DNA of 64,000 nucleotides from positions 1 through 64,000 of IMG/VR virus record IMGVR_UViG_3300047471_000466. One strand, given 5' to 3'. Of the stretch, positions 2,826 to 6,175 are shown piece after piece. The translations under genes were made by a program, and so were the position numbers. The notes below the pieces were generated by a model. The model saw only the letters and a list, made by a program, of their open reading frames with translations. It ran no database searches and was not told the origin of the DNA. This DNA is from a virus. Position 1 is the first letter of the stretch; each line of letters starts with the position of its first letter.

Positions 2826-4269
2826 TTAAGAATCTACTGGGCAACCTGCTTCCAAACCAAGCTGCGGATCGCAACGTAGCGAGCGGATAACATAACCCAA
2901 GTCGGGTCGTTCCTGCTTAATACCGTATGCAAAGAGCGCACGGAAGAAGCCGATGTTACCGTCGATGTTACAATCGCGGCTCGGGATATTGCGCCACACG
3001 AACTCTCCAGCCCAGCTATACTGTGCCAGATAAGTCATGCCGCCAATATTACCCTGCGGTTTAGGAATCAGGACTCGCATCACTTCCTCGTGATAGATCG
3101 CTGTATCTTCATACAGTGCCTTCTTGTAGACGTCGGCGACAATCCACTTCTGACCACGCGTAGCGTTGGTCGAACTGTAGGGATACCGGCGAGTATAGAC
3201 ATTGGTGACAATGTCGTAACGAGGCGGGAACTGAACGGCTTGGAATTTAAAACCATGATAGATTTTTCCACCCAAACCAGGAGCGCCAACCAGTACATCA
3301 GGTTCAGTGAACGAGAAGTAGCGGAAGTCATTCCGATTGTTGTCAGTTGATTTCTTGAGCAAGTTAAAGGTATAGTTATTACCAACCGCCGTGTAGACGG
3401 GAGTACCGTCTTCGACACGAGCCGTAGGTTTCAAACTACCACCATTATACCCGAGTTCCTGGTGAACTTCCTCAAGCAAGCCAAACGTCAAAGGCGACGT
3501 AGGCGGGGTCGTTGGGTCAAACGTTGCAGCGATGTTAGGCGTAGCAAGAGCAGTGACACAGTTCGAAACATTATTCAGATACTCGATCTGATAATTTTGC
3601 GACCATACCCACTTACTATTCTCAGCCAAGACACGCGTGACGTTCTTGATCTGATCGAGCACTTGCCACTGGAACTTGAAGTCATCGAGACAAATGTCGG
3701 GAGAATTCACTGCTGCCTTTTTCAAGGAAACAGTTTTCACATCGACAGCGAATGAATCGATATTGTAGCCAGTAACTGCGCAAGCGCCGGTACCGATTAG
3801 GTTGTTACCTGTAGCACCAGTGGCACTCAGGGTTGCGAATGAACTAAAGAAGTCCGAATCAGTTACCGCCTTGGTAACGATGGATCTCTGGTAAATGGGA
3901 TAGCTGTATTGATACCCTTGACCGTCAAGCCATGGCTCTTTCGGCAGGGTTTTAATATAAAAATCCGAATCTTGGATGCTGACCGCTACGTCATTTCTAA
4001 TCAACCAATTTGTTACTGCCTATTTCTAGGCGGTCGTACAATTTCTTTACGACTCTCTGGTTTCAAATATAGCCAGAGTTCGGACTGTATCTTCCCTTTC
4101 GGGGCTGCGTGCAGTCTCTACGGGGTCAACTACGACTTCCCTCGGTATTGTCAGTTTCCTGAGTTTCACCGATATAGCAGCATTTTTCATCTTAGCTATT
4201 TCTAACCAAGAGGCCACACTGATTTATGGCGTGATCCAAGAATAAATTTTCTAAGGCCGTACAGGACAT
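2826..4269 (-). CDS. Major capsid protein, spliced: exon 1 4269-4226, exon 2 4005-2826 (407 aa)
   Basis: Follows portal and scaffold; AAAGGA SD before ATG 4269; intron removal gives in-frame MSCTALENLFLDHAMLIRNDVAV; size typical of an HK97-fold capsid protein. Confidence 0.8.
4006..4225 (-). ncRNA. Group I self-splicing intron, 220 nt, no ORF
   Basis: P1 GCCAU/GUGGC with U-G at the splice site; P2 UCUUGGUUA-GAAA-UAGCUAAGA; P3 GCUGC/GCAGC; P4 UCGGU/ACCGA; P5, P6; P7 GACUG/CAGUC within GUAGAGACUG and AAGAUACAGUCC; P8, P9-P9.2; terminal G; P10 AAUCAGU/GUUGAUU. Confidence 0.93.
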
Positions 4270-4455
4270 AGTTATTAATTCCTTTACTAAAAAATTGGGA
4301 TCGGGAAAATTCTCGTAACCTTTTGCTACAAGGCCCGACTTTCTTTTTCCCTGGCGGTGAATCCGAGAACGGGAATGTCTCGACCGCAAATAGCTGATTG
4401 AGGTCCAGCAACCTACGCCTTATTCCATTCGTGCGTAATTACTGAATAACTATCT

Positions 4456-4863
4456 TTACGAGTTTGTCAAGCCCTTACACTCTTTTAAGCGATCCCAAGA
4501 AACGTGACAAGAGGGGCACAGCAATCGAACACGTTTCGTGTCTGGATTACGTTTAACCCATAACGACATGGCATAACCAGAATTTCCTATTTCTAATCGA
4601 TGTTGTTTACCATCGCCGTTCGTATGGGCGATTTCTAAAATATCCGACCTACGATCTTGACACCCACAAGGACAATCACAGCGGTCTCCTAAAATGCGAA
4701 CGGCGTCGAGACGGGCGCGTTGTTGGTAAGCCAAAGCAACGGCAGCGCGTTTCTCGGAATGTACATAGCGAGAAGTGGTCGCCTTGCCTTTTCTGGTTTT
4801 GCGATAGCGAGCCTGTGCTTCGGCTTTTTGTTTTCTTCGTTCTTCAGGAGTAACCACAGTCAT
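4456..4863 (-). CDS. Free-standing HNH-type endonuclease
   Basis: Basic N-terminus, CxCxCGC...LEIAH..G..HR...LLCPSCH. Confidence 0.75.
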   Translation of the reverse strand: MTVVTPEERRKQKAEAQARYRKTRKGKATTSRYVHSEKRAAVALAYQQRARLDAVRILGDRCDCPCGCQDRRSDILEIAHTNGDGKQHRLEIGNSGYAMSLWVKRNPDTKRVRLLCPSCHVSWDRLKECKGLTNS

Positions 4864-4894: not shown

Positions 4895-6175
4895 TCAAGG
4901 GGGTAAAATCCCTCGCAACCCTTCCCTCATAACTCCCATGAAGGAGGATCCACCGGTAGGGCCGGTAGGGCCGACAGGTGCGGCTGGTGGCGTTCCACCA
5001 CCGGCAACAGGGGTAGCGCCACGCAATTTAGTAATCATGGCGTCTTGTTCCGAGTTCTTTTTTACCAAGTCGGTAACGAGACCCAGAGTAAGGTCAAGAG
5101 CTTCGGCTTGATAAAAAGCTCGCGCCACTGCTTCGGGCGACACTTTACCAAGATCAACTGCTTGAACTTTGGCGATGCGCTCGCTCATGGCTTTGTCCCA
5201 AACTTCGTCTTCGGTCTTGGCGAAGATCGGAGATTCGGCGGTTAGCTTATTAAGACTGGCCGCAAGACTGTTCTTCCAGTTCGCCTCGATTTCTCGGGCA
5301 GATTGGATCCGTGCCGTTTCAGCATTTCGCCTTTGTTCTTCCTGACGTTGAAACGCGGTCTGCAGAACTCTCTGCTTCTCTGCGTTCAATTTGTCATAAT
5401 CTAAAATTGAAGAATCGAATCGCTGCATGTCCAGTCGATTAAAGCTCGTAGACAATTCAGAAAGGGCATCGCTTCGTTTATTGGCGTCCGGTTCTGTGAG
5501 AGCAGAGCGAAGTGCGCCAGCGTCCACACTATATTTGGCGGCCAGTGATTGAATTGTAGCATCTACCGCGGCCAAAGGCTGGGCGATATTAGTAGCGAAC
5601 TCTTCGCTGTTCTGATAATCTACGGCGGCAAGGCGTTCTTTAAATCCTGTATTTTCGTTGCGGAGTTTTTCGACTTCTTCATTAGTGACTGGAGGAGCTT
5701 TCTCAGCAGCCTCAAGTTTAGCAAGAAGACTTTTGTTTTCTTCTTCTAGCCGCGTGTTTGCATTTCGAACATGTTTAAATGCCGTGCCCGCGGCGACAGT
5801 CATTTTCTTCTGAGCCGCGTCTAACTGGTCGTCGGTTAGTTTCGGTTCAACTTCCGCAGTCGCTCCTGTAGGAGAAGGCGCTGGGGCAGCGGTAGCGCCT
5901 GTAGGAGACGGTTCAGGAGCGGCTGTTGCACCGGTAGGAGAAGGTTCGGGGGCAGCAGTTGCGCCGGTGGCAGGCTCGGGGGCCGCGGGGGGTGGTGTGG
6001 GTGGCGGAGTGGGCTCGGGAACGGGGGGGGGGGGGGGTGGAGTGGGTTCATCGGATTCGCGACCTTCTTTGGTTGGTAAAGCTTCAGGAGGAACAATGCC
6101 CTCCGGATAAGCTGCGGCCATGGCTCTAGAGAGAGCTTCGGATGCGGAAGTAGTGGATGTAGGTGCGTCAGGCAT
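4895..6175 (-). CDS. Capsid scaffolding protein (putative)
   Basis: Between portal and capsid; disordered Pro/Thr-rich N-terminus followed by long coiled coils. Confidence 0.65.
   Translation of the reverse strand: MPDAPTSTTSASEALSRAMAAAYPEGIVPPEALPTKEGRESDEPTPPPPPPVPEPTPPPTPPPAAPEPATGATAAPEPSPTGATAAPEPSPTGATAAPAPSPTGATAEVEPKLTDDQLDAAQKKMTVAAGTAFKHVRNANTRLEEENKSLLAKLEAAEKAPPVTNEEVEKLRNENTGFKERLAAVDYQNSEEFATNIAQPLAAVDATIQSLAAKYSVDAGALRSALTEPDANKRSDALSELSTSFNRLDMQRFDSSILDYDKLNAEKQRVLQTAFQRQEEQRRNAETARIQSAREIEANWKNSLAASLNKLTAESPIFAKTEDEVWDKAMSERIAKVQAVDLGKVSPEAVARAFYQAEALDLTLGLVTDLVKKNSEQDAMITKLRGATPVAGGGTPPAAPVGPTGPTGGSSFMGVMREGLRGILPP

Follow-up and report, generated by a model that had tools for sequence, protein, structure and literature searches.

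How a phage can make its major capsid protein from a gene whose reading frame closes after 25 codons is the question raised by a locus in IMG/VR virus record IMGVR_UViG_3300047471_000466. The stretch analyzed here, called the window, comprises positions 1 to 64,000 of that record (64,000 nucleotides, nt). The record is a virus genome of 79,247 base pairs (bp) with direct terminal repeats, rated complete by CheckV, and represents an uncultured, N4-like phage from a rhizosphere (soil) metagenome. The answer that we arrive at is that minus-strand positions 4006-4225 are very probably a genuine group I intron, free of any open reading frame (ORF) of its own, that splits a capsid gene of the N4-gp56 type. 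In terms of sequence, the exact exon boundaries are established from intronless homologues and the fold from covariation; that splicing occurs and is autocatalytic we infer. The interrupted gene is laid out as follows.

4226..4269, minus strand: exon 1 of the major capsid gene, with the ATG at 4269-4267, 14 codons (MSCTALENLFLDHA) plus AT, and U4226 as last base
4006..4225, minus strand: predicted group I intron, 220 nt, no ORF, from an RF00028 match and a four-sequence alignment
2826..4005, minus strand: exon 2 of the major capsid gene, in which G4005 completes the Met codon and is followed by 392 codons and the stop

Exons, splice junction and the predicted spliced product

The insertion point lies 44 nt into the coding sequence, between the second and third bases of codon 15, and a Shine-Dalgarno-like motif, AAAGGA, is found about 10 nt upstream of the capsid ATG. 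Without splicing the frame runs on as INQCGLLVRNS and stops after 25 codons (ORF 4192..4389), as the initial annotation of the sequence had read it. Excision of exactly 4225-4006 joins AT to G and gives a coding sequence of 44 + 1180 = 1224 nt, encoding 407 residues and a stop, with a predicted spliced RNA junction of CACGCCAU joined to GUUGAUU.

A search with exon 2 returned 206 homologues, most of which are 404-412 residues long and start with MACTALENLFLDHAMLIRNDVAV or close variants. The junction peptide DHAMLIR is the sequence encoded by intronless homologues (homologous proteins carry P numbers and loci L numbers below), being MACTALENLFLDHAMLIRNDVAV in P0003 and P0004 and MSCTALENLFLDHAMLVRND in P0019. 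Intronless homologues start MACTALENLFLDHAM..., the predicted MSCTALENLFLDHA-M-LIRND agrees across the junction with dozens of them, and the predicted length of 407 residues is that of intronless P0003 and P0004. Exon 1 is part of the protein because its residues E7, L9 and F10 are conserved in at least 90% of 61 homologues. The earlier proposal of a group I intron at 4006-4225, after codon 14, was therefore correct to the base and on the minus strand; the AT-to-G joint does restore the frame, to a 407-residue product that matches intronless homologues at the junction, and alignment with these homologues finds exon 1 shared and DHAMLIR reproduced.

Fold of the intervening sequence

The structure was written out on an alignment of four introns, namely that of the window and those of loci L099, L003 and L007, which are described below. 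Its elements in the window, all on the minus strand, are these.

4230-4225 / 4218-4213: P1, GCCAU and A, on the two sides of the splice site, with UGUGGC
4210-4204 / 4197-4191: P2
4181-4177 / 4108-4104: P3
4172-4167 / 4147-4142: P4
4162-4159 / 4154-4151: P5, with a GAAA loop
4141-4139 / 4124-4122 and 4136-4134 / 4127-4125: P6 (P6/6a)
4118, 4116-4112 / 4087-4082: P7, with A4117 bulged
4103-4101 / 4096-4094: P8, 3 bp with a GAAA loop
4093-4088: J8/7, AAGAUA
4081-4080 / 4008-4007: P9.0, GA with UU, read directly from the four sequences
4078-4073 / 4060-4055: P9
4053-4048 / 4038-4033: P9.1
4031-4027 / 4022-4018: P9.2
4006: terminal G (omega G)
3999..4004: P10 partner in exon 2, UUGAUU, which pairs with intron positions 4224-4219 (AAUCAG) and aligns the 3′ splice site

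Across the four introns the structure comprises 60 pairs with 99.6% of the cells paired, and in 23 pairs both partners have changed. Of 500 shuffles, none folded as well, and controls in which the structure was slid along the alignment were 33-42% paired. The core helices P3-P8, including the P3/P7 pseudoknot, are 100% paired in the four sequences, with compensatory changes in P3, P5, P7 and P8, and both J8/7 (AAGAUA) and the P7 strands (GAGACU / AGUC(C)) equal the family consensus in more than 100 loci. The P1-P10 core of the initial annotation is backed, as a full fold, by covariation in every variable helix.

The ends of the intron behave in the same way. The 5′ splice site is a U4226.G4217 wobble in P1, and this U.G is invariant in all four sister introns. 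The neighbouring P1 pairs covary with the exon, as G-C/C-G at columns 8-21 and as A-U/G-C/C-G at columns 11-18 of the alignment; exon and guide are GCCAU/GUGGC in the window and GCGAU/GUCGC in L099 and L007. P9.0 is G.U in three sequences and G-C in L007. In L003 and L007, other exon-2 starts match altered 5′ segments of the intron in P10 (GGAC..CAAC with GUUG..GUCC; UUGG with CCAA), and P9.0 and P10 shift coordinately in these two loci, where exon or tail differs.

In a local search of 701 nt, the Rfam group I model RF00028 gave a full-length match of 38.4 bits (E = 3.2e-8), and the L003 intron scored 40.5 bits. The Rfam alignment misassigns P8, P7′ and P9 in the 3′ half, misled by a P8 of only 3 bp and by two additional hairpins after P9. 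The splice sites that this alignment implies (5′ after GGAU 4234; 3′ at G4016 or G4005) were rejected, since only U4226 / G4006 reproduces the DHAMLIR of the homologues. Only two ORFs of at least 25 residues overlap the intron, one crossing it on the opposite strand and one of 56 residues inside it; both are mechanical and without support.

In the mechanism that we propose, the late capsid transcript would fold into P1-P10, and exogenous guanosine would attack after U4226, held as a U.G wobble by the internal guide GUGGC. P10 and P9.0 would then put G4006 into the G-binding site of P7, and exon ligation would lead to the 407-residue capsid protein. Unspliced RNA would yield a 25-residue peptide only.

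Identity of the interrupted gene

An AlphaFold model was made for P0004, an intronless homologue that is 91% identical (predicted local distance difference test score (pLDDT) 73.6, predicted template-modelling score (pTM) 0.72). The model has the HK97 fold, and its best Foldseek match is the phage N4 capsid 9e99 (E = 2.7e-9, probability 1.00); matches to the capsids of N4, Moo19 and DEV range from E = 2.7e-9 to 4e-8 with template-modelling scores of about 0.5. The match in BFVD is to the N4-gp56 family. Judged from this model, the interrupted gene is an N4-gp56-type major capsid gene with the HK97 fold, in agreement with the initial annotation, which had called it the major capsid gene. The upstream order of a portal-sized ORF, a small ORF and a scaffold-like ORF fits this identity. 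In 50,697 phage records, tblastn found nothing that matches the capsid protein, and Pfam and PHROGs searches of the capsid, portal-sized, scaffold-like and HNH-type ORFs were also negative.

Sister introns and the wider ribozyme family

Sister introns were found by searching public collections with a conserved stretch of the core. The L099 intron occupies the same site as that of the window, is also 220 nt long and is 89.5% identical. The L003 intron (L003:2781-3000, plus strand; exon 1 at 2721-2780), likewise of 220 nt, is 74.7% identical and interrupts an orthologous capsid gene, whose protein is 83% identical, 16 nt downstream of the window's site, after ...RND/VAV; it has a different guide sequence, and its P10 fits its own exon 2. 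The third, in L007 (L007:10192-10414, minus strand), is 223 nt long, 78.4% identical and inserted at codon 300 of another capsid gene of the N4-gp56 family, the family assignment coming from the source name and from Pfam Phage_capsid_3 at E = 1e-4. Its predicted junction, KSD/PTNRF, and its 335-residue product equal the intronless P0275 exactly. The L007 intron can also be read straight through by a gene caller, as an ORF of 411 residues. At the level of sequence, a single ribozyme lineage is found at three positions in N4-type capsid genes. The window intron is slightly closer to that of L007 than to that of L003, which points to horizontal movement.

Intron-bearing variants are present in other rhizosphere and groundwater assemblies, and in one of them a G-to-A change turns a G.U pair of P2 into A-U. 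When contigs of four DNA runs were overlaid on the stretch, there were no joints and no intronless allele was caught. A second copy of the core motif (up to 3 mismatches) was not present in the 79-kb genome. One protein cluster at 90% identity (P0015 / P0274) holds a 396-residue form that starts MLIRND and a 410-residue full-length form, which may be two nearly identical capsid alleles, one with and one without the intron. In L200 and L201 the capsid match has a gap of 243 nt, which was considered as a third intron and rejected, as it is an in-frame coding insertion: at L200:3880-4122 (also in L201), a distant capsid homologue has an 81-residue Ala/Thr/Gly-rich repeat between residues 280 and 281, which looks like a surface decoration domain.

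The 28-base core spanning P6, J6/7 and P7 was found on at least 120 metagenome contigs. Judged from the flanks, these insertions are in bacterial 23S rRNA (two sites), bacterial 16S rRNA, the anticodon loops of bacterial tRNA(CAU), and phage genes. Examples are L019 and L062 in 16S rRNA, L013, L017, L024 and others in 23S rRNA, and L020, L043, L054, L064 and others in tRNA-CAU. L053 has two introns of this core in tandem, and in L009, L069, L071, L082 and others the intron holds an ORF with a Cys-rich motif. With ends set by exon motifs and accurate to a few nt, the relatives at rRNA and tRNA sites are about 170-218 nt long, apart from one tRNA(CAU) member of 255 nt. The initial annotation had placed the capsid intron close to the smallest natural group I ribozymes, but it is not unusually small: beside these relatives, 220 nt is ordinary or even large.

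Bacterial group I introns include subgroup IC3 (PMC3984707), and niche and compact architecture suggest that the window intron is of an IC3-like type. Its compact core lacks P5abc and P7.1/P7.2 and has P2, P9.0 and P9. This architecture fits that of the IC3 introns of Azoarcus tRNA-Ile and of cyanobacterial tRNA. The tRNA(CAU), 23S and 16S introns share with the window intron the 28-base core, P4/P5 and the J8/7 consensus. Unlike these small tRNA and rRNA introns, the one described here sits in a protein-coding phage gene and has two extra 3′ hairpins (P9.1 and P9.2) and a very short P8.

Gene order and the neighbouring HNH-type gene

On the minus strand the genes upstream of and including the capsid gene are, from 5′ to 3′, a portal-sized ORF of 796 residues, an ORF of 116 residues, the scaffold-like ORF, the HNH-type ORF and the capsid gene. 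The last intervals before exon 1 are these.

4895..6175, minus strand: scaffold-like protein, 426 residues, Pro/Ala/Thr-rich, a putative scaffold by position and the usual left neighbour of the capsid gene
4456..4863, minus strand: free-standing ORF of HNH / His-Me-finger type, 135 residues, between the scaffold-like and capsid genes; candidate trans-acting homing endonuclease
4270..4455, minus strand: leader of the capsid gene, from the HNH stop to the capsid ATG, from a seven-locus alignment

Homologues of the scaffold-like protein sit immediately before the capsid gene in L002-L006. At its N-terminus, the window's protein carries a long tract rich in Pro, Ala and Thr, in which the unit APEPSPTGATA is repeated. 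Of 75 related IMG/VR loci, about 67 have a large upstream ORF that stops 170-430 nt before the capsid gene, and the spacer contains no ORF. The leader, of about 190 nt, is partly kept in intronless relatives as a ACGCACGAATGGAATAAGGCG block followed by hairpins. A TTGACA hexamer at 4473-4468 lies within the last codons of the HNH ORF; this region would be the likely capsid promoter, with the HNH insertion abutting it.

From the end of the HNH-type ORF to the capsid ATG there are 187 nt; the ORF contains the motifs CDCPCGC, EIAH-TNGDG-KQHR and LLCPSCH. It has 2329 homologues in a representative library, with the consensus CxCCGE..IDHxNGxG..HRKE..LCxNCN, and within its subclade the Cys4 and H-N-H motifs are retained. 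Pfam matches within the family are weak (Endonuclease_7 in 3 of 40 members, HNH in 2 of 40). Its model has a pLDDT of 95 and matches mostly HNH domains, weakly (Foldseek E ≥ 0.2; VIA-align Z ≤ 3.7), and comparison with the PDB by sequence and by profile gave nothing meaningful.

In L099 and L003, homologues with 64% and 28% identity, respectively, occupy the same slot before the sister introns, and L007 has a clear Pfam HNH_5 gene (L007:11340-11999, minus strand; E = 2e-10) between its scaffold-like and capsid genes. All four intron loci thus have an HNH-type ORF immediately before the capsid gene, compared to 1 of about 71 intronless loci (Fisher p = 6e-5, or 1e-3 with the window and L099 counted as one event). 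In a set of 79 IMG/VR loci whose capsid genes are related, intron and HNH occur together only in L135 (the same as L003), and HNH occurs alone only in L209 (the same as L006).

This arrangement resembles collaborative homing, in which the ORF-less psbA group I intron of cyanophage S-PM2 is paired with the free-standing endonuclease F-CphI (PMC3984707; PMC6083498). In both systems a free-standing gene of His-Me-finger type adjoins the interrupted gene, and the pair is sporadic among close relatives. The differences are that the interrupted gene here is the capsid gene rather than psbA, that the candidate nuclease gene lies upstream and belongs to another, poorly annotated His-Me family, and that intronless relatives with HNH only exist. 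In such a scheme, the putative HNH-type nuclease would cleave intron-free capsid alleles close to the insertion site, with the intron shielding the genome that carries it. That the adjacent gene at 4456-4863 mobilizes or maintains the intron by collaborative homing is a reading we put close to an even chance, just short of it.

Alternative explanations

Several observations weigh against an intact, mobile intron as described above. At the gathering score of 50, to which the 38.4 bits compare, RF00028 had no match in the whole window; in a relaxed scan of the whole window the match was removed by the filters, and it was also absent in a scan of the whole phage genome. The comparison with group I models that the initial annotation had suggested thus gave a match in the 701-nt search and none at the gathering score. 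The sub-gathering score is a limit of a single broad model and not evidence against the fold. P8 has only 3 bp, P1 has only 5 exon base pairs, and the sequencing runs listed for the stretch include no RNA run. On the side of the HNH link, the window's HNH-type ORF is not recognized as HNH by Pfam and has Ala in place of the Asp of the consensus IDH; L006 carries three HNH homologues around an intronless capsid gene (HNH copies and capsid region at L006:2939-4201; L006:1667-2797, 5033-5482); and P0003, which is intronless, and the HNH homologue P0123 are singletons, each on a 4133-nt Logan contig, probably one and the same, which would be HNH-positive and intronless. Near codon 47 the L006 capsid ORF is frameshifted by one base (PWL*), which may be an assembly error.

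If there were no splicing at all, the capsid would start at TTG 4004 and the upstream 14-codon frame would be a separate small ORF or non-functional. Gene callers do open the 392-codon ORF 2826..4004 at this TTG and annotate the 392-residue form (P0001, P0002). However, the conserved family N-terminus is encoded by exon 1, the frame is continuous only if exactly 220 nt are removed, and this segment takes up a group I ribozyme fold backed by compensatory changes. Upstream of TTG 4004 there is no Shine-Dalgarno motif, and exon 2 lacks its own ribosome-binding site. Nothing supports the TTG start, which the initial annotation had named as an observation that would speak against the intron, and we regard this reading as very improbable. 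A decayed, splicing-defective intron, or one in need of a host or phage protein cofactor, in a genome that is possibly a dead-end variant, is somewhat less far-fetched but still improbable. The very short P8 and the sub-threshold Rfam score would fit it, but the same architecture is kept at four loci of different sample origin, down to the 3-bp P8, where a compensatory change replaces C-G by A-U, and every junction of the catalytic core agrees with the family consensus. Variants in several other metagenomes and a CheckV-complete genome with terminal repeats also argue against decay.

The alternative to collaborative homing is a real intron beside an HNH gene that is selfish in its own right or serves another function; the two would share only a preference for the scaffold-capsid junction, and the intron would spread by reverse splicing or recombination during co-infection, or just persist. 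L006, and probably the P0003 and P0123 contig, show HNH genes where the intron is missing. The three HNH genes have diverged strongly or come from different families (those of the window and L003 are 28% identical; HNH_5 in L007), the L007 intron is about 900 nt from its HNH gene, and free-standing HNH genes are common in the structural modules of phages (PMC3706429, PMC10448857). On the other hand, all four intron loci have an HNH-type gene in a slot that is empty in about 70 related loci, and the arrangement is the same as in the published cases of collaborative homing (PMC3984707, PMC6083498). We consider such independence a real possibility, if somewhat short of an even chance.

Going beyond the pairing of intron and nuclease in the window, the ribozyme lineage and the diverged free-standing HNH genes could together form a two-part mobile unit that acts on N4-type capsid genes at three or more sites as a phage-versus-phage weapon. 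This wider proposal is speculative and, in our judgement, unlikely. If it were true, the sites of the unit would be codon 15, codon 20 and codon 300 of another capsid gene, and each move would re-tune both the guide sequence of the intron and the specificity of the nuclease. The nuclease would attack the capsid gene of co-infecting intronless relatives, with the intron as the immunity half, so that the pair would target the most essential late gene and would not be a neutral parasite.

Relation to known introns and significance

Phages with capsid-gene introns, and with such introns paired to a nuclease gene next to them, have been described before, and current concepts are unchanged by the present finding. 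The initial annotation had seen novelty in the location in a capsid gene, but such introns have been published in lactococcal phage Tuc2009 and mycobacteriophage LittleE (PMC3706429), and in the major capsid genes of crAss-like Delta/Zeta phages (PMC7886860). As in these phages, an intron of group I type in the major capsid gene is recognized here against intronless relatives, and capsid output would need splicing. In LittleE, splicing was demonstrated by reverse-transcription PCR and N-terminal sequencing (PMC3706429), the cDNA is 820 bp shorter than the genomic DNA, and there is an ORF similar to LAGLIDADG, whereas the intron described here is ORF-less and 220 nt long. The crAss-like introns were found through endonuclease domains; in contrast, the present one is an ORF-less intron, 44 nt into the coding sequence of an N4-gp56-type capsid gene. 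A likeness in form is seen in mycobacteriophage BAKA (PMC3706429), whose minor tail gene has an intron of 265 bp that is also small and ORF-less, is also located in a virion structural gene, and is, as here, related in sequence to the capsid-gene intron of a sister phage. BAKA belongs to another phage group, and its splicing was shown by reverse-transcription PCR, while splicing of the window intron is predicted.

A practical consequence is that the capsid proteins of this phage and of several relatives, annotated as forms of 385-396 residues that begin at MLIRND or just after, would be mis-annotated and truncated at the N-terminus. As Rfam misses the intron at the gathering score, metagenomic virus catalogues probably list too few of the small ORF-less introns that interrupt phage structural genes.

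The collaborative-homing model has so far been based on very few cases, and the three insertion sites, three diverged HNH genes, HNH-only alleles and empty alleles would serve as natural replicates for it. The data also bear on how a ribozyme is re-targeted through changes in its guide sequence. The phage itself needs hundreds of copies of the capsid protein for each virion, and their production would depend on the folding of a ribozyme and on free guanosine.

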